Assembly (NCBI RefSeq): GCF_024700885.2
Contig: NZ_CP117014.1
Strand: one strand, 5' to 3'
Length of the DNA: 64,000 bases
Source: Escherichia coli
GTDB taxonomy: Bacteria; Pseudomonadota; Gammaproteobacteria; Enterobacterales; Enterobacteriaceae
The notes under the pieces were generated by a model. That model did no database searches. It saw only the letters and a list, made by a program, of their open reading frames with translations, and was not told the origin of the DNA. The translations under genes were made by a program, and so were the position numbers. Shown here piece by piece: positions 26,431 to 57,573 of this stretch (position 1 is its first letter; every line of letters starts with the position of its first letter).

Positions 26431-27054
26431 ATGAAGGATGGTGTAGTGAAGTTAAGGGTTTTAGGGGCCGCGCTCGCGGCTATGTTGGGATGCGTATCTG
26501 CTAATACTGCCAATGCAACTGCGTTACCTGCACAATTCAGGGCAGGGCAGCAGGTTATGAATAATGCTGGTGGGGATCATTCACAAGCGGCCATTATGGA
26601 CTTTTGCAAGAGGGAGGGCATTCCATTACGGCCTGTTGGAACTCAGTTTATTGGTAAAACTGACTTTTGCGTTTTTGCATATACAGCATATCTGACGGAC
26701 AAAGCTATAACAAAAACAGGTTATTCAACCAAAGATACTCTTTCCAGATTAAGTCAGGGATGGCAGCAATTCGAAGTGTATCGCCAGCAAGGATTAGGTG
26801 AGTTATTGCAACCACTTTTTATGCTTGCGTTGGTGCCCGAGGGGCAGCAATTTTTGGTTAAAAAGGGAATGCTTCGCCAAAGTGATATTGCCGGGTTCGA
26901 TAGCATGATGGCTTATGAGCGCAAACTAACCGAGCAGCGAAATAAAAAACCATCTGCTTCATGTGTGCAAAGTAAAACAGCAGAATACAGTGCAGTAGCC
27001 GGGCCTTTAGCCAAACAAATGGCAGAGCAATGGTGTAAAAAATACGGGCAATAA
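26431..27054 (+). CDS. Exported protein with signal peptide (207 aa)
   Basis: N-terminal LGAALAAMLGCVSANTANA signal-like segment. Confidence 0.5.
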   Translation: MKDGVVKLRVLGAALAAMLGCVSANTANATALPAQFRAGQQVMNNAGGDHSQAAIMDFCKREGIPLRPVGTQFIGKTDFCVFAYTAYLTDKAITKTGYSTKDTLSRLSQGWQQFEVYRQQGLGELLQPLFMLALVPEGQQFLVKKGMLRQSDIAGFDSMMAYERKLTEQRNKKPSASCVQSKTAEYSAVAGPLAKQMAEQWCKKYGQ

Positions 27055-27074
27055 GTTACGCAGCGGAGGCAGAA

Positions 27075-27467
27075 TTGAAAAGATTGACAATTGCTTTACT
27101 GGCGTCTTTCCCTTTGATCGCGAGCGCCGGAAATTTACAAGTTAAGTGCGGTCGGTTTGATATAAAAATCTATCCAGATGCCATATTTCTGAATGGGAAT
27201 AAGGTTGATAACGTACACCGAAAAACTGAATCTGACGTAATGAGCTATGTGTTCCAGGAGTATGCGGAGATGGGGGGAACTTACACGCTGTACTCGCTGG
27301 ATGTTCCTTCTCGCGGTGATATGACATTATCCCATCAATGGCAGAACGCCGATGGCGAAGCTCTGCGCGAAGTTAAAACAGAAAAATGTGGCACTTTCCA
27401 TTCTTTTAAAGGGAAAGTGCCAAATGTTAAATCTGTGCTTGAAAAACAGCGCGCAGGTGATTTTTAA
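27075..27467 (+). CDS. Exported protein with signal peptide (130 aa)
   Basis: MKRLTIALLASFPLIASA signal peptide. Confidence 0.5.
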   Translation: MKRLTIALLASFPLIASAGNLQVKCGRFDIKIYPDAIFLNGNKVDNVHRKTESDVMSYVFQEYAEMGGTYTLYSLDVPSRGDMTLSHQWQNADGEALREVKTEKCGTFHSFKGKVPNVKSVLEKQRAGDF

Positions 27468-27489
27468 ACTGTGTTAGCACTTTGAACAT

Positions 27490-27535
27490 GGCGACAACAC
27501 ATCTTGGTGGCTGCGTTGTCGCTGTATGTTTTTAT
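27490..27535 (+). terminator. Rho-independent terminator
   Basis: GCGACAAC...GTTGTCGC stem followed by TGTATGTTTTTAT. Confidence 0.5.
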
Positions 27536-27555
27536 AATATAAAGCATTAAAGTTT

Positions 27556-28185
27556 TCATTTTTGTCGGATCTTTTCCAGCATATTTAATTCATTATCACT
27601 TTCTGCTGCTGAGACGGTTGGCCTCACATTTCCGAAATATTTCCTGTGAGACTCATGACTTATGTATTCACCGACAGTTTCATTCTTGAATATACGAATT
27701 TGACATATGCGAGATCCAACAATAAGTTCTACAGGGCTATTCCCATGATTAAATAACTCTAAAGATATACAGCCTCTGTACCCTGGTTGTATCATGGTAT
27801 TTAATGAAAGACCAAGCCTTGTATAGCTGCTTCTGGACAATACATCAGCGTAGCAATCTGGTGGCAAACAAACATATTCTAATGTTGTTGCCAGTACCAC
27901 TTGATTCGGGTAAACAATGAACCTATCCCCAAGATCTCTCCTTGTTTCCTGGAAAAATGTTCTGATTGGTTGATGAGTATCATTGTTTTTTGAGGGAATT
28001 AACTCTATTGACGGCTTCCTTGTCATAATAGACACTAAAAAATCGTAACCAAGTCTAAGGTCTATGGTGAAGTTTCCAATTTGGTTTTTATTTAGAAGAG
28101 GTTCAATGAACAACGACTCAGGTTCTTCTGATTCATAATATTGCAGCAATTCAGCTTTGCTTAGGAGATTCATTGTGCACTCCAT
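27556..28185 (-). CDS. dCTP deaminase (Dcd/dUTPase-fold) homolog
   Basis: 209 aa collinear with E. coli Dcd: IDLRLG, LATTLEYVCLP, RSSYTRLGL, GYRGCISLELFNHG; putative catalytic Ser/Arg/Glu conserved. Confidence 0.7.
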   Translation of the reverse strand: MECTMNLLSKAELLQYYESEEPESLFIEPLLNKNQIGNFTIDLRLGYDFLVSIMTRKPSIELIPSKNNDTHQPIRTFFQETRRDLGDRFIVYPNQVVLATTLEYVCLPPDCYADVLSRSSYTRLGLSLNTMIQPGYRGCISLELFNHGNSPVELIVGSRICQIRIFKNETVGEYISHESHRKYFGNVRPTVSAAESDNELNMLEKIRQK

Positions 28186-29243
28186 TTTTCAAGAATCATT
28201 ACGTTTCGAATCGATTTTTCAACCAAATCATTTATAGTTTTTTCTATGGCTTCTTTTGACAACCCAGACCATATACCCGTAGGTTTTTCCCATTCAGAGC
28301 ATAAGTACTGCCAGCTGCTGTTAATAAAAGCATGCATTTCATTGTGGTCGCGAATAACAAAAGGACGCACATTATCAAAAGCTGATTTCACATCAAGCAA
28401 AGGTGTCGGCAATGTCAAACAAGGAGAAATAATCTGCCCACCCTTATGTAAGGCTGATATCACAGCATTGAACATGCCAACAACTGGATTTTCCACTTTG
28501 TTCAAAAAGTCGCTTACAATTTTAACTCTATCTTCTGTGGATGGGTGAGTATAGCTTGCAGGATGAGAGCCAGCTAATTTGTATAAGAAATCTACCCCAC
28601 TTTTTCCAATAAATTGGGCACTAAATAGATCTGCAAAATATTCTCTGCAATGATTTATCCAAATAACATCAGGTAGATTACTCCATTCTGGTCCTGGAAG
28701 TGTGCCTTTGTCCTTGGAACGATAGTTAAGACAGGCAAGCTCAGAAATACCTTTGCTAATATCAACGAAATGTCCCAATTCGTGATATAAAGGTATAGAG
28801 CATAATGGTCGTCTTCTGTACATTTCAGGTAATGAAATCTGAATTAATTCGACCTCGAATTTGACATTTAAAACTTCATCAAATAAAGAATACAAATTCT
28901 TGTTTACAGACTTAAAATAAAACCCATGCATATCTGGAGATAGGGCTGTGGTTATAAGTGTTTTTTCACTTATCCATTTTTTACAGGCATCATTTAAGCA
29001 ATAAACAATCTCGTAGGGAATTTTCTTTGTAGTACTGCCAGTGAAAAAATTAACTGCATCGGTGATAAAAAAAGTACAATCCGCAATTATTTTATCAGCA
29101 ACATTCACATGGTTTTCATAGAGCTTATCTACCGCTTCTTGTAGAACAGCAAGATATTCATGCATGTCTTTAGAAAAATAGGGAGATTCTGATATCTCCC
29201 TTAGCTTATTTCGAACTAATGTAAGTTGTGTAAATGCAAGCAT
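28170..29243 (-). CDS. HExxH zinc metallopeptidase-like protein (ImmA/IrrE-like motif)
   Basis: 357 aa; HELGH at residues 154-158 with downstream EYFADLFSAQFI; 16-nt overlap with Dcd-like gene. Confidence 0.5.
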   Translation of the reverse strand: MLAFTQLTLVRNKLREISESPYFSKDMHEYLAVLQEAVDKLYENHVNVADKIIADCTFFITDAVNFFTGSTTKKIPYEIVYCLNDACKKWISEKTLITTALSPDMHGFYFKSVNKNLYSLFDEVLNVKFEVELIQISLPEMYRRRPLCSIPLYHELGHFVDISKGISELACLNYRSKDKGTLPGPEWSNLPDVIWINHCREYFADLFSAQFIGKSGVDFLYKLAGSHPASYTHPSTEDRVKIVSDFLNKVENPVVGMFNAVISALHKGGQIISPCLTLPTPLLDVKSAFDNVRPFVIRDHNEMHAFINSSWQYLCSEWEKPTGIWSGLSKEAIEKTINDLVEKSIRNVMILEKWSAQ

Positions 29244-29548
29244 TAAATGTACTCTAATACATTCCGGGCCATTACGGGTTCTAACATATCTTCGCTAGTT
29301 ACTTTGGTTAGCACCTGGGCGAGCGCCTTAGTGTGGCGTATCTCTACCGCGAGCGAGATGGACTCTCTGTGAGAAGGAATCTGTAATTGATCACCTTTAT
29401 CTACACTTAAGTTTGAGGCTTCTCTGATCACCTCATAAACCCGTAACTTTAACTGCTGTGACACTTCTTGTTGAGATGCTATAAGCTGAAGTACAGTCTT
29501 GATTAACTTCAAAGAATCAGAAGCTTGCTGAGGAACCGCATAGAGCAT
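29243..29548 (-). CDS. Small hypothetical protein (101 aa), first gene of the three-gene operon
   Basis: Stop overlaps start of the metallopeptidase gene; predicted all-alpha. Confidence 0.4.
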   Translation of the reverse strand: MLYAVPQQASDSLKLIKTVLQLIASQQEVSQQLKLRVYEVIREASNLSVDKGDQLQIPSHRESISLAVEIRHTKALAQVLTKVTSEDMLEPVMARNVLEYI

Positions 29549-29684
29549 AACCCCTCCTTTTCCCTTATCTATAACCGCTTTCTTTTTTCTGTGGATGTTA
29601 AAAGTAGAAGCGGTTTTTACCTTTTATAATATATATAGTGTCTAAAACTAATTTTGGCACTATATATGGCATGATATCTATGTT

Positions 29685-29730
29685 TTAAAGACACAAAAGC
29701 TCTGTTAAAACAGAGCTTTTGTGTCTTTAA
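29685..29730. promoter_or_regulatory. Perfect 20-bp inverted repeat with 6-nt spacer upstream of the three-gene operon
   Basis: TTAAAGACACAAAAGCTCTG-ttaaaa-CAGAGCTTTTGTGTCTTTAA; second IR ATATATAGTG-N17-CACTATATAT at 29631-29667. Confidence 0.5.
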
Positions 29731-29874
29731 CTTGATCATTTTCTCGCTGAAGTGTATGTCAGGCTTAGCTCATAATCAAGTTGCTTCCAAGCTAAAAATG
29801 AGCTATTTCACTGAAACACCAAGAGCGGGATGTTTCATTTATTTGCGTTGGGCCTGACGGTGTGCAGGTGAGTT

Positions 29875-30162
29875 TTAGCTCATCACACTATAACGACGGG
29901 GAACGGAATTCTCCATCAGGTCACGAATTACTCCCGCCTCATGTAGTTCCTCTGTTTCCCAGTATCTGTTTGTCACCAGATCGAGGCTGGCTATGACCTT
30001 GTGCCGGTCATTAGGCATAGCCAATTTTTCTGCTATAACCATCAGTGAAAACTCTTCATCCAGTAGGATTTGATACCAGACTTTTGACAGCTCCAACTCT
30101 CTAATGAGGGTGAAGCGCCGCTCAAGTGTGGCGGCAGAATAAGTGAAATCTATTTTTTTCAT
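29875..30162 (-). CDS. Hypothetical protein (95 aa)
   Basis: ORF downstream of antirepressor-like gene. Confidence 0.4.
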   Translation of the reverse strand: MKKIDFTYSAATLERRFTLIRELELSKVWYQILLDEEFSLMVIAEKLAMPNDRHKVIASLDLVTNRYWETEELHEAGVIRDLMENSVPRRYSVMS

Positions 30163-45305: not shown

Positions 45306-46400
45306 TCACTCAATGATTTTTTCTGCTGTCAGCCAGCTAATTTCTTGCCTGTCTTTCGGCGGTTTTAGCATGTGGGCGTATTCAGCGACATTCTCCCACG
45401 GAATTGTTTTTGCCCACTCAACGATAGCATTGTGATCTGCAGTGAAGAGTGGAATGGTGTGCGATTTCAACCATTCTAATGTCGTGACGCCATGTTTTTT
45501 GGCGTGGTGCTGCGCATGATGCCGGGCTATCACTCGTAATGGTATTGTCCATTCACTACCATCAGGCATCGAAAAGCGCATTGTCTTCGGCATATCTGAT
45601 TCAAGAACAGCCTCCCTAATACCAGGGAACTCACCAAGAATCATACGACGATAGTCATCACTATTTCGCCCGCCATACCTTTCGGCAAAATGATCAAGAT
45701 ATTCTTGGGTAATAAATGGTGAATCCTCCGCACTCAGCTTAATGGCTTTATATACACCACTCGGATTATCTTCAGCTAAAGCACGTCCATGATGTGAATC
45801 ATAAAAAAAGCCTATTTCCTCTGGTGACGGAATTGAAGTGAGCAATATGCGTGAATCACCACTAGTCATGCTTGCCCACACAATGCTGTATGCCCGATCG
45901 CTGATATGTGCGGAATCCACAATAATGAATAAAAGATGGTCGGCGTAGTGACCTGCAATGCTATCTTCATAGTTAAGGCGGAAGTTACAAAAGCACATTC
46001 CCCAAAATTCATTGAACATCAGACCGCTATCACCGACCTTAAAATACTCAATGATAAAAGGTTGTTTTTTCAGCAATGCCTCCCAACATTGCCACACATA
46101 TGCAACAATTCCTCTTTTGCAAACATTTGATTTTGGATAAACAATTACTGTCCGGGAATCAGGATACATAATCGTATAAAGGGTACTAATAACAGCAAGC
46201 ACTTGCGGTCGTCCGATCCCATACGGAGTGGTGACAGTAGCTTTTGCATTATTGGGCTGTATAGCTTCAACAATTTGTTGTTGCTGGTGGCTTAAATCAA
46301 TATCAAACAATTCTTTTGCTGCCAGTACCCAATTGTCTTTATATTTCTCCACCAGCGACAGCCAGCGCGGATCTTTATAAATATTGCTCTTAGTCGCCAT
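45306..46400 (-). CDS. PacB-like terminase large-subunit paralog with degenerate Walker motifs (365 aa)
   Basis: Collinear with PacB N-terminal half (SHQQQQI, DSHHGRA, ESPF, YGGR) but Walker A GHGTGKSS replaced by PYGIGRPQ and Walker B LDEAS by VDSAH; start ATG 46400. Confidence 0.5.
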   Translation of the reverse strand: MATKSNIYKDPRWLSLVEKYKDNWVLAAKELFDIDLSHQQQQIVEAIQPNNAKATVTTPYGIGRPQVLAVISTLYTIMYPDSRTVIVYPKSNVCKRGIVAYVWQCWEALLKKQPFIIEYFKVGDSGLMFNEFWGMCFCNFRLNYEDSIAGHYADHLLFIIVDSAHISDRAYSIVWASMTSGDSRILLTSIPSPEEIGFFYDSHHGRALAEDNPSGVYKAIKLSAEDSPFITQEYLDHFAERYGGRNSDDYRRMILGEFPGIREAVLESDMPKTMRFSMPDGSEWTIPLRVIARHHAQHHAKKHGVTTLEWLKSHTIPLFTADHNAIVEWAKTIPWENVAEYAHMLKPPKDRQEISWLTAEKIIE

Positions 46401-48927: not shown

Positions 48928-49000
48928 AGCACCCTCCTAAATAGGCGAGGGTACTTTACAGCAAAGGCGTTAATCTAAAAAGATGTGTTAGAAATTTAAT

Positions 49001-50029
49001 TTACGAATCCATCAGGCGGCTATTAGCCCCCACAGACACGCCGCCACGGCGAAGATACCGCATAAGTGTTTCCGGTTTCTTCCAGGTTCCTTCCTGCATG
49101 ATCTCCACCATAGACACCTGCTTTTCAGCCATATCAATAGCGGCCCCGACGCGTGCACTATGCCCGGTCCACGTCCGGTATCTTCCTTTGTTTGGCGTAG
49201 CATCTCTTTTATTCAGCAACACCCAGGCGTCGCTGAATATTTTCTCCATTGCAGGTGCAGTAAGGGGCGTTGTCGTGATCCTGGCCTTATTGCTACGGTG
49301 TATCGGCGGGAACAGCACTGCGTCAGGATGTTCGCGAAGCCCGGAAACATCCAGCCAGTCATTCAGCACAGCGGTAGTGCGACGGGAAAGCACCTTATCA
49401 AGCCCGGCGGCGGTCGTTATTGTCTTCGTGTGTGAAATATGTAGCGTGACAGTGTCACCTGTTTGATCCAGATCTCCTACACGAATACGCGAGATTTCCG
49501 ACATACGCATCAGCGTATTGTATGCAACAAAGAGAAAAGCCCGGTTGCGCAGGTCCACCAGCCGTTCTGACCTGGACAACAGGACGTCGAGCAGTTTCAG
49601 ATCGTCCCACCGAAGCGGTATAGCCTGGCCTGTTCGTTCGCCTTTTTCAGTTGCCGCTTCGCGCCGGATGCGCCGCATAGCCAGAGAAACACTTTTATCA
49701 TCCGAAAGTGGCGGAAGGCCACAATGCGAAAGCAGCATATTCAGCATGGCGTAGTGCTTATCAATGGTGGTCGAAGCCAGATCGGCATCATGCAGCTGAA
49801 GAAAATACTCGCGGGCCATTTCTGGTGAGATCGGAAACCAGGCAAGCTGGCGAGCGTGACACCAGCGCGCCCATGAATGAAACACCAACCGGAGGTCGCG
49901 CAGAGTATTCGGCGCATAAGCCCCCTGGTCATTCATGAACCGCATAAAGTTTTCTGCAGCCTCCTGGTACTCTTTGCCAATGTTGCGCAGAAAACCACCG
50001 GAGCTGCCAGAGATAATTAATTCACTCAT
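49001..50029 (-). CDS. Cre-like tyrosine site-specific recombinase
   Basis: 342 aa collinear with P1 Cre (…WTGHSARVGAA.DMA……IMQ.G.W……Y.R), conserved R/H-x-x-R/W/Y; lox-like site ~150 bp upstream. Confidence 0.8.
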   Translation of the reverse strand: MSELIISGSSGGFLRNIGKEYQEAAENFMRFMNDQGAYAPNTLRDLRLVFHSWARWCHARQLAWFPISPEMAREYFLQLHDADLASTTIDKHYAMLNMLLSHCGLPPLSDDKSVSLAMRRIRREAATEKGERTGQAIPLRWDDLKLLDVLLSRSERLVDLRNRAFLFVAYNTLMRMSEISRIRVGDLDQTGDTVTLHISHTKTITTAAGLDKVLSRRTTAVLNDWLDVSGLREHPDAVLFPPIHRSNKARITTTPLTAPAMEKIFSDAWVLLNKRDATPNKGRYRTWTGHSARVGAAIDMAEKQVSMVEIMQEGTWKKPETLMRYLRRGGVSVGANSRLMDS

Positions 50030-50180
50030 GAAACTATTTAACCTCTATATACAGATAACGCTACGCGAAAAATATAAAAATGACAGGGTAGCTATAAGTT
50101 AATTTTCAAGATTCAAGCCTTTGATTCGAGGCGCGTATTTTCAGTGATGTCAATACTGATCATCTACCCATAATTATAGC

Positions 50181-50214
50181 CTAACTTTAAATAATGCCAA
50201 TTATTTAAAGTTAT
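50181..50214. other. lox-like recombination site: 13-bp inverted arms with 8-bp asymmetric spacer
   Basis: CTAACTTTAAATA-ATGCCAAT-TATTTAAAGTTAT; outer AACTT/AAGTTAT shared with loxP. Confidence 0.6.
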
Positions 50215-50395
50215 AAAATGCCGATTTTTTTTAATCCATCATAGATTGATGATGACCAGTAACACGTTGCCTTCATGGTCTTTAATTTGCGAAGTGTGGT
50301 TTCTACGGTTGGTTTTCTAAAATTGATGACAAAAAATCACAGTTCGATCCTTTACTCACTCTGTTATTCGACATAAATTTGTCATAGTAATTTTA

Positions 50396-50411
50396 TGTTA
50401 GAAAACTAAAT
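50396..50411 (+). promoter_or_regulatory. Dispersed motif copy TGTTAGAAAACTAAAT in promoter of gene at 50424
   Basis: Read directly, ~13 bp upstream of ATG. Confidence 0.45.
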
Positions 50412-50423
50412 CGAGTAGGAATA

Positions 50424-51461
50424 ATGAGTAAGAAGTCGATCGAGAAAGAGTACAAACGGTTCCTGCAAACCGCTGAACGGTGGAAAGAGCTGGTGGTCGC
50501 AAACTCTGTTTTCCATGATACCAGTTATGCTGGCGAGGAATTCCGCCATGTTGCATTAACGCATGACCAAAACATATTAGAAGAAGCTGAAAAATGTCTT
50601 GCTGAATGGAAAGCCTTCGTTGACATGTGCCGCGATGCCGACGGCAAAGCGTCGAACATTGTTGAGTCTGTATATTCTCCGATCCCATTCATCATTGAGG
50701 ACACCAATCAAAGCACGCATGTCGTTGTGCAAAGCGCTACAACAACACGTACATTTACACGTGAACAATTGCTAAAAAAATACGACAAAATCATAAAGAA
50801 AAGCCTTAAAAATAGGGTTTTTTCTCAAATCGTAGGTGATCTTGAAGAAGAACAGCGCTTCTTTGAAGCTGAGCCTGAAGGCGAGATCTACCGGGCGCGT
50901 AAAGAGGCATATACAGATGTTGTGCTGACAACAAACATCGAAGGCAGCAATGCCCTTTCTCGCTTTAGAGTTGGCGCACATGGTGCATTGGTTTTCGCAA
51001 GACTACCGAAGACAACGATCCCCGTTGTCAATAATGTTGGTGAACGCCGGAGCATTACAATTTATTCTGGCGTCGAATCGGTACCTTGCAGCCTTCTCGG
51101 CGATTTTAACTTATATCGTGTTCGTGACCTGGAAAAACACCAGCCAAGCTATGTTGCGAAGTCGTACATCTTAAGGAACATCGATATTCGCAATGAAAGC
51201 CTTAAGCAGAAATCCGCTAAGATGCTGGAGGATGCCGATCCGGCTATTCGCCATATCATTGAGCGTAAGATACGTACATCACGTGAAGCAATGGCAAGGC
51301 TGGATAAAATGGATCTGGAATTGTTAGACGTAATGATGGCCTCTGGAGACGACCTGACCGGCATTAAACTGAATGAAGCTCGTAAAAAATACGGCAAAGC
51401 AATCGAAGAACGTTACGGATACACATTCCCCCAAACGCAGTACGCCGCGAAGCTCTGGTAA
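50424..51461 (+). CDS. Hypothetical protein in the c1-equivalent position (345 aa); candidate regulator
   Basis: Convergent with pacB and adjacent to lox-like site, as for c1 in P1; motif copy in own promoter; no recognisable P1 C1 similarity. Confidence 0.4.
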   Translation: MSKKSIEKEYKRFLQTAERWKELVVANSVFHDTSYAGEEFRHVALTHDQNILEEAEKCLAEWKAFVDMCRDADGKASNIVESVYSPIPFIIEDTNQSTHVVVQSATTTRTFTREQLLKKYDKIIKKSLKNRVFSQIVGDLEEEQRFFEAEPEGEIYRARKEAYTDVVLTTNIEGSNALSRFRVGAHGALVFARLPKTTIPVVNNVGERRSITIYSGVESVPCSLLGDFNLYRVRDLEKHQPSYVAKSYILRNIDIRNESLKQKSAKMLEDADPAIRHIIERKIRTSREAMARLDKMDLELLDVMMASGDDLTGIKLNEARKKYGKAIEERYGYTFPQTQYAAKLW

Positions 51462-51468
51462 TCACAAC

Positions 51469-51490
51469 CGGCCCCGCATCGCGGGGCTTT
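51469..51490. terminator. Bidirectional hairpin terminator between convergent genes
   Basis: GCCCCGC-atc-GCGGGGC followed by TTTATATAT. Confidence 0.55.
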
Positions 51491-52997
51491 ATATATCCAG
51501 ATCCGGCATTTCGATATCCGCCAGAACCTGATCTCGGAAAGTTGCCATTTCGGCACCAATATCTTCATTAGCAGGCACATAGTCCACCAGCATAGTGAAG
51601 CAGTAGGTATCCCATCGGTCAGGCGATTTGATGTTTAGCTTTTGCCGCATGTGCTCTTTGCGCATCATCGCCATTTTCCCTTCTTCATTCAGTAAAAAGG
51701 GGATTTTTGACGCTTGCTCTGCCGTTTTAGGGTCACTGTCTATCCGCATACGCCCTGACTTTATGGCATCACGCGCCATAATGTTTGCGTAGGCACGCTG
51801 ATTAACAAATCGCTCCCTGTCTTTGTTCGCAAACATGGGTTTTCCCCACCGAATACGTACCGGGTTCGCACCACGACGCACCAACTGCGCACACGTATCA
51901 GAACCAAAACCATCAGCATCAACCGCGATTGTTATATTCGGGTATTTTTCCGGCGTACATTCGTTATATATGAAGTCAGCAAAGGCCAATGGGTCCATAG
52001 TGCCAGGCATCTCCATTACCTTAAAGTTAACAACGCGCCGCTTATCCCTGTGACCTGATACCTTGCAGATGTTGAGGACCGACTTATCTCGCCCATTACC
52101 AACGTCAGCCGTTGCCACCCATCCCCAGTTTTTCTCCAACAACACCTTGCGGCGAGCAGAGCGATCGCATTCATCACGACCAAGCAAATAGCCGTTAATT
52201 TCTCGTGGGAACTGACCAAGCACCTTGACCATGTACTCAATAGAATCGCGCCCACCATATTCCAGAAGCTTCTCCTTGATGAATTGTGGTGTGACGAACG
52301 GTGATTCTTCCGAGTTAAGAACAATTGCTGTCCAGATCCCTTTCGGGTTGTCTGGGGTTTTTGCTCGAGAATGGTGCGAATCGTAGAAATAACCACTTGG
52401 CCTTGTTGGCTGGGATAGCATCAACATCCGGTTATCTTCTTCAGTAAGAGCACCGGTCATTACGCCGATCGCCTTATCAGATATACCAGATGCTTCATCC
52501 AGAATTAGAAGCAAATGTGCCGCGTGTTCCCCCGCCAGCGCTTCTTCGTTGCCGAGTCGATAACCTTTGCAGAGAACTTCCCAAATCCCCTTACGGGAGC
52601 GCTCATAAAACATGGTGTCAGAGAGGACAAAATAGGTCTGCAACCACCCATGACGCTTAACTGCATTCGCCCAATACTGTTTAACGTATTTGAATACGCC
52701 TGTTTTTACCTGGCCTATCTTGTTAGCAACAATGATGACACGGGCATCGGGGAACAGGATCATAAAAATCAACAGCAACATCGCGGTAAGGGACGACTTC
52801 CCCGTTCCGTGTCCGGACGTGACGGTCGTCCTACTCCCCGTTTCCTGCACTGACTGAATGATCTGCTGCTGCTGGTGGGAGGGGAACATCCCAAAAATAT
52901 CGACTACAGCCTGGGTAAAGTTGTAGCGGTATTTGATTACCATATCGCGCCAGCGTGGATCGCTGGTGACGCATTTAATCTTGCGCCCGCCAGCCAT
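51489..52997 (-). CDS. pacB: Terminase large subunit (PacB-like)
   Basis: Walker A GHGTGKSS, Walker B LLLILDEASG; 502 aa; start overlaps pacA stop. Confidence 0.8.
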   Translation of the reverse strand: MAGGRKIKCVTSDPRWRDMVIKYRYNFTQAVVDIFGMFPSHQQQQIIQSVQETGSRTTVTSGHGTGKSSLTAMLLLIFMILFPDARVIIVANKIGQVKTGVFKYVKQYWANAVKRHGWLQTYFVLSDTMFYERSRKGIWEVLCKGYRLGNEEALAGEHAAHLLLILDEASGISDKAIGVMTGALTEEDNRMLMLSQPTRPSGYFYDSHHSRAKTPDNPKGIWTAIVLNSEESPFVTPQFIKEKLLEYGGRDSIEYMVKVLGQFPREINGYLLGRDECDRSARRKVLLEKNWGWVATADVGNGRDKSVLNICKVSGHRDKRRVVNFKVMEMPGTMDPLAFADFIYNECTPEKYPNITIAVDADGFGSDTCAQLVRRGANPVRIRWGKPMFANKDRERFVNQRAYANIMARDAIKSGRMRIDSDPKTAEQASKIPFLLNEEGKMAMMRKEHMRQKLNIKSPDRWDTYCFTMLVDYVPANEDIGAEMATFRDQVLADIEMPDLDI

Positions 52998-54361
52998 TAA
53001 TCATCCTCCGGCGGTTCTATCGCGATATCATCATCTCCGGCGTCATACCCTGCATCAGATGCATCATAATCACCGTAAATTTCAGCCGTTGCCGAAGGGT
53101 CAATATCCAGCTCTTCGTCGTTGGCCTCGAATTCTCCAGCTTTACGCTCGCCATTGCGGTCGTAATCTCCGCACCCCAATTCTTCAACAATGGTTGCCAC
53201 ATCCGCCCGGCGCTCTGCCAGCCATTGCGGATGGTTAGCCTGAAGCGTTGCAAACTCCCTTGCCTCTTTGTCCAGCTGTTCATCATCAACATCATTGACG
53301 TCAGAAACAGGTGGTTCGAGAAGAGTGATAGCTTTCGCCGCGCGCGCCGCGAGGATAGCCGGGACGCTGACACCCTGGCGCTCGATGTATTCAGCAACAC
53401 CGATATCATCCAGTTCCTCGCGCTCACGCATACGTATAGCGGCGGCGATAACTCTGGCTGCGCGTGCGTCAGCGCCAATGCGATATTCAATCTCTTTGCC
53501 ACGCTGTTCGGCCTGTAGGCGTGCTAATTCGAGTTTTTCTCTGGCCTCAGCCTCTTTGAATGCTTGCTGGCGAGCGCTCTGACGAAGCTTTTCATCCCCC
53601 TGTCGCAGCTTTTGTTCGGACTGATATATAGCTGCCAACCTACTGATAAAATCATTCATGTAGTAGGCCGCGTCACTGATTAGACCGAGAAGGCGCTGCC
53701 CAGGGTGCATTCCTTCTGGCTCTTTATCGCCCAAGGCGTCTATTTCCGCCTGTAGACGTTCGGCCTCCTGATCAACAATGCTTTGATACTGAAGTGCGCG
53801 CTCTTGCGCCATTTGAATTGCTAACCGCAGGTGTTCTTCTGCGCCGTTCTTCATCATATCGCGAGCCACATTCGTAGTTGGCAATGTGGCACGCTGCACA
53901 GCACCGTCAGGGATCATTGCAGAAGATCCCTCAATTTTTGGGGCGTTTTTATCTTCTTCGGGGATCATTTTCGCCATTTTTTCGCGCAATGATCTCCTGA
54001 CAGATTCTTTTATCTCATTGTTATTATTTGAATTATTTTCATGATCCGAAGTTTTCTTTCTCGGCATACTTCGGAAAGAACCTGCGCCCTGCGAATTGTC
54101 AATTTCTGTAAATTTTGTTTTTTCTGCACCCTCTTCCAGCTTTTTTGTTGCTCTTCCCGCCCGTTTTTTTTCAGGTGATTTGGTGCTTTTTTTTGTTGTC
54201 TTTACCTGCGACCGCACCTCATTTTTTTTCATATTGAGATGCTTTCTGGCTGTATTGAAGCTAAGGCCATGCTCCTCACAGTATTCCTTTACAGTGATCC
54301 CTTTTTCTTCACGCAACGCTATAAAGCGGGCGCGGTGCTCCTCCCAATTAACCAGACTCAT
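52997..54361 (-). CDS. pacA: Terminase small subunit (PacA-like) with N-terminal HTH
   Basis: N-terminal ...KEYCEEHGLSFNTARKHL HTH; acidic C-terminus; internal GATC cluster. Confidence 0.7.
   Translation of the reverse strand: MSLVNWEEHRARFIALREEKGITVKEYCEEHGLSFNTARKHLNMKKNEVRSQVKTTKKSTKSPEKKRAGRATKKLEEGAEKTKFTEIDNSQGAGSFRSMPRKKTSDHENNSNNNNEIKESVRRSLREKMAKMIPEEDKNAPKIEGSSAMIPDGAVQRATLPTTNVARDMMKNGAEEHLRLAIQMAQERALQYQSIVDQEAERLQAEIDALGDKEPEGMHPGQRLLGLISDAAYYMNDFISRLAAIYQSEQKLRQGDEKLRQSARQQAFKEAEAREKLELARLQAEQRGKEIEYRIGADARAARVIAAAIRMREREELDDIGVAEYIERQGVSVPAILAARAAKAITLLEPPVSDVNDVDDEQLDKEAREFATLQANHPQWLAERRADVATIVEELGCGDYDRNGERKAGEFEANDEELDIDPSATAEIYGDYDASDAGYDAGDDDIAIEPPEDD
53912..54046. other. 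Candidate pac site: cluster of five GATC (Dam) sites within pacA
   Basis: GATC at 53912, 53925, 53963, 53991, 54043 (~0.5 expected by chance); GGGATCATT duplicated. Confidence 0.4.
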
Positions 54362-56278: not shown

Positions 56279-56354
56279 TGGTGGCCCCTACCGGACTTGA
56301 ACCGGTGACCGTGCGATTATGAGTCGCCCGCTCTAACCACTGAGCTAAAGGGCC
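56279..56354 (-). tRNA. tRNA with CAU anticodon (Ile2/Met-type)
   Basis: Reverse complement gives 76-nt cloverleaf ending CCA, anticodon loop CTCATAA; very similar to E. coli ileX from memory. Confidence 0.8.
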
Positions 56355-56783
56355 AGATTACTGTTAATTACGCTTACGCTTTTTGCCAGAACCGCGTAAG
56401 GCTTTTGCCGCTTGCTCTACCCCGTATGCAACCACCAGCAGAAACAATAATGTCCACTCCGGGTTTTTATCGGCAAACGCCCAAAAATCCATCACTTGCA
56501 GCCACCTTTTAAGACAAAACGCCATTGCTGTTAGGTTGCGGTGCCGGGCGCCTCCCGGTGACGTTAACCAGTTAACAATTAACGCCGGATCACTTATGGA
56601 TTCTCGTTACGCCAGTAAAAAGACCACCTTTACTGTTTTAACTGTTCCGCGTGCGCTTAGCCGCATTCACCGCAATGGTAAGAGCATTTGGCTGACTGGG
56701 CGGCGATGACGCCTGTACGCATTTGGTGATCCGGTTCTGCTTCCGGCATTCGCTTAATTAGCCAAATACCCTTAATGTTGCAC

Positions 56784-56870
56784 TGGCGGAGAGTAATGGA
56801 ATCGAACCATCATCGCTTGCGCAATGGGACGGTTTTCAAGACCGCTTGAGCACCATGCTCCCTACTCTCC
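56784..56870 (-). tRNA. tRNA-Ser (UGA), type II with long variable arm
   Basis: 87 nt, acceptor GGAGAGT/ACTCTCC, anticodon stem GCGGT/ACCGT, loop CTTGAAA, T-loop TTCGATT, 3' GCCA. Confidence 0.7.
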
Positions 56871-57324
56871 CGTTATTGTGGCGACCGGTGCTGATCTCCG
56901 GCTTGCGGTTATTTCAGACTCTCACGGGCGTTTAATTGCCCCGCCGAACAGCTCTTTTCCGCAATAGCTGCAATGTCTTTCGCGCATCAGCCTGCGCATT
57001 CACCACAATGTTGAGAACACTGGTTGTCACGCTGCAACGCAACATTTATTCGTAGATTGGGATATGACCCCGTTACGCCAGTGTTCTCAACGTTGTAGTG
57101 CCGGTTACGGTTCCGGCCAGACCTCTTCCTCAACGGGGTGTTCTCCATACGGACTACCGTTTATTGGTCGTTCCTGCGGTTTATGTTGTGAAGCCAGATG
57201 CTTATCTTCTGGTTGCTTCAAAGAGCTGCACTTCATCACAACGGTAAGAGCATTTATGGCTCGCATCGCGGGAAAAAGCCCACGGTAGAGAGTCGAACTC
57301 TACAAATGCTCTTACCTGTTGTGT

Positions 57325-57400
57325 TGGTGCCGGTTAACGGGATCGAACCGCTGACCATTCGCTTACAAAGCGACTGCTCTACCAACTGAGCTAAACCGGC
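57325..57400 (-). tRNA. tRNA-Thr (UGU)
   Basis: 76 nt, acceptor GCCGGTT/AACCGGC, D-arm GCTCAGTTGGTAGAGC, loop TTTGTAA, T-loop TTCGATC, CCA. Confidence 0.8.
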
Positions 57401-57404
57401 AATT

Positions 57405-57491
57405 TGGTGGGGAGTGATGGAGTCGAACCACCCGAGTCGCAATGACAGTAGATTTACAGTCTACCCCGCTACCCCTACGGACTAACTCCCC
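57405..57491 (-). tRNA. tRNA-Tyr (GUA), type II
   Basis: 87 nt, acceptor GGGGAGT/ACTCCCC, anticodon stem GTAGA/TCTAC, loop CTGTAAA, CCA. Confidence 0.75.
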
Positions 57492-57496
57492 TAAAT

Positions 57497-57573
57497 TGGC
57501 GATGGTGGGTGGATTCGAACCACCTACCGAAAGCTTAGAAGGCTGCTGTTCTATCCTACTGAGCTACACCATC
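57497..57573 (-). tRNA. tRNA-Arg (UCU)-like
   Basis: 77 nt, acceptor GATGGTG/CACCATC, loop CTTCTAA as in E. coli argU, T-arm GGTGG-TTCGAAT-CCACC, CCA; one mismatch in anticodon stem. Confidence 0.6.

Follow-up and report, generated by a model that had tools for sequence, protein, structure and literature searches.

The window analysed here, 64,000 nucleotides of the Escherichia coli contig NZ_CP117014.1, carries a tyrosine recombinase gene (dre) and, divergent from it, a prophage repressor gene (c1), and the 394-bp intergenic region between the two holds a 32-bp palindromic recombination site (rox); the terminase genes pacB and pacA are found beyond c1 (Table 1). The initial annotation had placed a lox-like site about 150 bp upstream of the recombinase, and its 34-mer, CTAACTTTAAATAATGCCAATTATTTAAAGTTAT, is indeed present exactly as written at 50181-50214. 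The cognate 32-bp rox, TAACTTTAAATAATGCCAATTATTTAAAGTTA, has its exact match there, adjoining dre upstream of the start codon, with 152 bases between the site and the ATG.

Table 1. Features of the dre-rox-c1-pac region, in coordinates of the window.
Feature	Coordinates	Strand	Basis
dre, 342-aa tyrosine recombinase	49001..50029	-	ORF call, ATG start; 342/342 to AAV84949; Pfam
sigma-70 promoter-like site directed at dre	50173..50200	-	11/12 consensus match only
rox, 32-bp recombination site, TAACTTTAAATAAT GCCA ATTATTTAAAGTTA	50182..50213		exact match to annotated rox
rox left 14-bp arm, dre-proximal	50182..50195	+	inverted repeat, 100% complementary
rox spacer GCCA, 4 bp, asymmetric, sets site direction	50196..50199	+	repeat finder; 14-4-14 in PMC4777119, PMC12331466
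rox right 14-bp arm, c1-proximal	50200..50213	+	inverted repeat, 100% complementary
c1, prophage repressor, 345 codons, divergent neighbour of dre	50424..51461	+	position as c1 (AY753669), D6_1 (MF356679); phrog_1678, E 4.9e-170
pacB and pacA, terminase genes	51489..54361	-	synteny with annotated D6 pacB, pacA

The earlier description of the recombinase as Cre-like proved well founded. Two Pfam domains were detected in the protein, the catalytic domain PF00589 (residues 157-327, E 4.6e-16) and the N-terminal SAM-like domain PF02899 (residues 26-97), and this is the Cre-type layout of a SAM-like core-binding domain followed by a catalytic domain, without an arm-binding domain. When solved structures were searched with the protein, all 17 matches were to Cre of P1 or to engineered forms of it, the top one being a Cre chain (E 5e-69) aligned over residues 22-341; the PDB copy searched held no structure of Dre, only those of Cre and its variants. 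In pairwise alignment, Dre and Cre share 41.8% identity over 328 aligned residues. The Cre-type catalytic set R-(E)-K-H-R-W-Y of the C-terminal domain is kept in full (7/7 pocket residues), with R175, E178, K202, H290, R293, W316 and Y325 pairing with R173, E176, K201, H289, R292, W315 and Y324 of Cre, and the list of Dre catalytic residues given in PMC4777119 agrees with the residues conserved here.

As to the identity of the module, megablast of positions 48930-50430 against phage records matched three records, all of them Escherichia phage D6, and the features annotated under the match are 'dre: tyrosine recombinase' and 'region of crossover (rox) site for Dre recombinase'. The window protein is identical to D6 Dre (AAV84949) at 342 of 342 positions with no gaps (BLASTP), and the window site is identical to the misc_recomb feature 'rox' of AY753669 and MF356679 in 32 of 32 bases. 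The intergenic region between dre and c1 is 98% identical to that of D6, with rox and one base on either side of it invariant, and the gene order orf2-dre-rox-c1-pacB-pacA is common to the window and AY753669, where lpa then follows. At the nucleotide level, dre differs from D6 dre (L001:1524-2552) at 31 of 1029 positions, 29 of them third and two first codon positions, and none alters an amino acid. All the differences being synonymous, the Dre protein is under strong purifying selection, and the gene is a copy of dre that has diverged in nature and not D6 sequenced again. Discrete Dre lineages, each tightly conserved, seem to exist, with the window and D6 proteins identical and other plasmid copies at 89-94%.

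Nothing contradicts the identification as Dre/rox, and what the window carries is almost certainly the site-specific recombination system Dre/rox, borne on a plasmid prophage of the D6 type. With Cre alone for comparison, one might suspect a Cre/lox-type pair of new specificity, unlike any recombinase and site characterised so far, given the 12 of 34 positions at which the site differs from loxP and the limited identity of the proteins, but this possibility is refuted by the complete identity of protein and site to Dre and rox, which are published and widely used, and can be given practically no credence. The Dre/rox pair is thus already known and experimentally characterised, and is not new.

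The system was reportedly described by Sauer and McDermott in 2004 (Nucleic Acids Res 32:6086) as a homologue of Cre that shows no cross-reaction with loxP. Protein and site identity, gene order and catalytic residues come from the comparisons made here, while statements on recombination of rox and on the lack of crosstalk with Cre/loxP are taken from later papers that cite and repeat the 2004 work (PMC3082901, PMC12331466, PMC4957104, PMC4777119). In PMC3082901, rox with its native D6 flanks is given as (A)TAACTTTAAATAAT TGGC ATTATTTAAAGTTA(G), and the reverse complement of the site with these flanks matches window positions 50181-50214 exactly. Efficient recombination of rox by Dre, without cross-reaction with Cre/loxP, is documented in PMC3082901, PMC12331466 and PMC4957104, and when Cre, Dre, VCre and SCre were assayed on loxP, rox, VloxP and SloxM1 in E. 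coli, no cross-reactivity was observed (PMC3082901). From sequence identity combined with these published assays, the window Dre would be expected to recombine rox and not loxP, and Cre would not be expected to recombine rox. The distinct specificity pair suggested in the initial annotation is consequently heterospecific to Cre/loxP, as published tests had established, but its novelty does not hold, and the proposed use as an orthogonal recombination tool had already been borne out by published Dre/rox experiments. Recombination tests of the kind suggested there were reportedly carried out as early as 2004 and on many later occasions. Dre/rox has been an orthogonal partner to Cre/loxP since 2004 and is one of the standard tools for work in E. 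coli, Bacillus, mammalian cells and mice, and a genome search had located Dre and rox in E. coli genomes (PMC4957104). With protein and site identical to the known pair, the module is of little importance as a discovery; it could serve as a positive control, in which a heterospecific Cre/lox-type pair was correctly recognised from raw sequence alone.

The rox palindrome is a real feature and not a product of chance. Only two places in the 64 kb hold a perfect inverted repeat whose arms are 14 bp and whose loop is at most 10, against a mean of 0.005 in 200 first-order Markov simulations, and the 32-bp rox core, present in one copy in the window, had no counterpart in 100 dinucleotide-preserving shuffles even with up to 3 mismatches allowed. 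No second rox was found in the window at the same tolerance of 3 mismatches, and a built-in inversion or excision cassette was rejected, as there is no second copy to recombine with. A 24-nt direct repeat overlapping rox (50182-50205 and 50206-50229, two copies with 75% identity) was treated as chance, because it comprises only two copies of low identity and its right flank differs among relatives.

The geometry of the site differs from the one originally proposed. A palindrome with an asymmetric spacer is present, but in the 13-8-13 register of loxP the arms CTAACTTTAAATA and TATTTAAAGTTAT are complementary at only 12 of 13 positions, the outermost C and T being unpaired, and complementarity runs two bases further inward on each side, into what that reading takes as an 8-bp spacer. 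Accordingly, rox does not have the perfect 13-bp arms and 8-bp asymmetric spacer of a lox-type site, and the actual perfect repeat is 14-4-14, which is also how rox is defined in PMC4777119 and PMC12331466. Furthermore, resemblance to loxP is not limited to the outer AACTT/AAGTTAT, as had been stated; in the 13-8-13 register the two sites share 22 of 34 positions, the inner ATA-ATG included. On the other hand, the 13-8-13 register is a reasonable functional hypothesis, though it does not describe the structure of the palindrome, because the functional crossover region of rox was argued to be probably lox-like in length (PMC4777119). In that study, positions 1-8 (ATGCCAAT) were mutated, with positions 2 and 7 found to be critical, and these eight positions are exactly those assigned to the 8-bp spacer in the initial annotation; according to the same source, the cleavage sites in rox still need direct mapping.

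Compared with Cre/loxP of P1, the Dre/rox module shows the same fold family, protein length and catalytic residues, a lox-like palindrome, a position next to the immunity and pac region, and a presumed role in dimer resolution and cyclisation. The two systems differ in protein sequence (41.8% identity, as given above) and in site architecture, 14-4-14 in rox and 13-8-13 in loxP, and no recombination between them has been reported (PMC12331466, PMC3082901). They also differ in what lies between site and recombinase gene: in P1, the interval between lox and cre holds cra and three annotated promoters of cre, all outside lox, whereas in the window there is the 152-bp gap between rox and dre, with a promoter-like site overlapping rox. 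A further related system is Panto/pox of Pantoea sp. aB, with a Cre-like recombinase and pox arms that are nearly those of rox. Panto is 52% identical to Dre, and each of the two recombinases acts on the site of the other, yet rox and pox do not recombine together because their spacers differ (PMC4957104). Homologues on Pantoea plasmids showed 40-43% identity.

Among closer relatives, rox is kept exactly beside recombinases with 320 (L005), 321 (L006) and 307 (L008) of 342 residues identical to Dre, and in L006 and L008 the outer base is also complementary, which extends the arms to 15 bp. A single T-to-C change in the right arm of rox was found in L004 (recombinase 338/342; site 1553-1584) and in L007 (305/342; site 1806-1837). 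More pronounced divergence is present in a Shigella dysenteriae plasmid (L009:1803-1834), where the site reads TAGCTTTAAATAAT ACTA ATTATCTAAAGTTA, that is, with the spacer ACTA and changes in the arms. When IMG/VR was scanned for perfect rox arms with any spacer, 23 contigs were obtained, of which 21 carried GCCA, one CCCC (L018) and one GCTA (L026). The base just outside the arms varied in IMG/VR contigs (C..T in 13, C..G in 6 and T..T in 2), and this variability supports the definition of rox arms as 14 bp long. Even beside recombinases that have drifted to about 90% identity, the arms of rox remain unchanged, and natural spacer variants are rare; the natural variants of rox may represent heterospecific sites.

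In regard to the mechanism, the chemical steps can be outlined by analogy with Cre. One Dre monomer would bind each 14-bp arm of rox, two per site, and two occupied sites would come together in a tetrameric synapse. Tyr325 would then cleave one pair of strands through a 3'-phosphotyrosine link, assisted by R175, K202, H290, R293 and W316, and a Holliday junction would form and isomerise before the second pair of strands is exchanged. The reaction is expected to proceed without accessory proteins or cofactors, and the asymmetric centre GCCA would fix the orientation, so that recombination between direct repeats would lead to excision or resolution.

The role of the module in the life of the element can be considered in the same way, here by analogy with P1. 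Dimers of the plasmid prophage would be resolved to monomers by Dre/rox, allowing partition to work, and after injection Dre would circularise the terminally redundant phage DNA, both ends of which carry rox. Dimer resolution of the plasmid prophage, proposed in the initial annotation, is in line with the assignment of multimer resolution to this recombinase and site in D6-like plasmid prophages of Salmonella (PMC6799933); the literature searched yielded no experiment in which dimer resolution or circularisation had been followed directly in D6. The circularisation role is suggested by the short distance, 3-4 kb, between rox and pacA, the gene within which the start of packaging would be expected by comparison with P1. 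Five GATC sites are grouped within 53912-54043, compared with 3.5 per kb on average, and this cluster may mark pac. Clusters of the P1-type hexamer TGATCA/G were also sought in pacA, and only one such hexamer was present.

It is also possible that rox has a second function, related to the expression of the recombinase. In the promoter-like site directed at dre, the -35 hexamer TTGGCA (50200..50195) falls inside the centre of rox and the -10 hexamer TATAAT is located at 50178..50173. The -10 hexamer is retained in 31 of 32 rox loci, though the sequence further to the left diverges into several unrelated versions. On the other hand, promoter-like sites are no more frequent in the region than expected, with two observed against a shuffle mean of 2.4. 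A literature search for rox as a promoter returned only irrelevant papers, and this search did not extend to the 2004 primary description. We therefore regard it as a rather doubtful, though conceivable, proposal that the centre of rox doubles as the -35 element of a predicted dre promoter and that bound Dre would shut off its own transcription. If true, the supply of recombinase would be coupled to the occupancy of the site, an arrangement absent from P1 Cre/loxP.

A stronger version of this proposal would hold that the palindrome is mainly regulatory, an operator or promoter for the divergent dre and c1, and that recombination is secondary. The 11/12 consensus match, the position of its -35 within rox and the persistence of the -10 could be read in this way, but recombination at rox is experimentally established (PMC4777119, PMC4957104, PMC12331466, PMC3082901), the promoter is a consensus match in a region with no excess of such sites, and any regulatory role would add to recombination rather than replace it. 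A mainly regulatory palindrome is for these reasons extremely improbable.

The element that hosts the module is related to D6 without being D6 itself. In blastn against the 91,159-bp D6 genome, 50.1 kb of the 64-kb window (78%) was collinear at 82-99% identity, and eleven stretches of at least 100 bp had no D6 counterpart. Numbering of the D6 record starts at the centre of rox, hence the split of the D6 match at window positions 50197/50198. The element agrees with P1/D6-like phage-plasmids, in which genes for phage structure, immunity, pac and plasmid maintenance are collinear on a plasmid of about 90 kb, and the closest records are non-mobilizable plasmids of 86-97 kb from E. coli, Salmonella and Shigella. 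Judged from these alignments, the host element is a mosaic relative of D6 and a D6-like phage-plasmid. Compared with D6, the window therefore has the same Dre protein, the same rox with its flanking bases and the same gene order, and it differs in the 31 synonymous changes in dre and in the mosaic make-up of the element around it.

The distribution of the module is consistent with such a host. The dre-rox segment was found in 143 PLSDB plasmids (117 from Escherichia, 16 from Salmonella, 9 from Shigella and 1 from Enterobacter), mostly of about 90 kb, with 115 of the 143 typed as non-mobilizable. Likewise, it was present in 123 of 5426 complete E. coli genomes, where 123 of its 126 places were on plasmids and three were chromosomal. 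In terms of natural history, Dre/rox is common among the D6-like phage-plasmids found in E. coli, Salmonella and Shigella. The three chromosomal places, together with the matches of Dre to generic phage integrase families (phrog_1 'integrase', its PHROG match, and PF00589), could suggest an integrase that inserts the element at an attachment site in the chromosome, the palindrome serving as attP core. However, nearly all copies are carried by plasmids of about 90 kb that have plasmid replication and partition genes, Dre has the two-domain layout of Cre without an arm-binding domain, and a simple 32-bp palindrome suffices for reciprocal recombination in heterologous hosts (PMC4957104, PMC12331466, PMC3082901), which leaves an integrase with next to no chance of being the correct explanation, and Dre/rox as a recombination module of a phage-plasmid is retained.

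Several structures outside the module were also observed in the window. A 3.4-kb stretch absent from D6 (26489-29897) contains a gene at 27559-28185 (minus strand) for a 209-aa dCTP deaminase homologue (TIGR02274, 113 bits against a cut-off of 92.8) and three further ORFs belonging to PHROG families of unknown function. The second perfect inverted repeat with 14-bp arms in the window, at 29689-29716, lies close to the edge of a D6-absent stretch and has arms of about 18 bp and a 2-nt centre (AGACACAAAAGCTCTGTT..AACAGAGCTTTTGTGTCT).

In another D6-absent stretch, a gene on the minus strand (45306-46382) encodes a product related to the PacB terminase of the same element. The similarity is confined to the N-terminal ATPase half of PacB (37% identity over 258 aa, E 5e-57), the C-terminal half being unmatched, and the Walker motifs of the product look degenerate (TTPYGIGRPQ for A, LFIIVDSAH for B). 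The product is a member of phrog_5902, a family of unknown function. PADLOC, run on the genes of the D6-absent stretches and on this PacB-like gene, gave no matches. Finally, a cluster of five tRNA genes, for Met, Ser(tga), Thr, Tyr and Arg(tct), was detected by ARAGORN at 56279-57573 on the minus strand. At the matching place in D6, ARAGORN detected Met, Ser, Thr and Asn, of which the D6 record annotates only three, on the opposite strand; the tRNA segment of the window is only 82% identical to D6.
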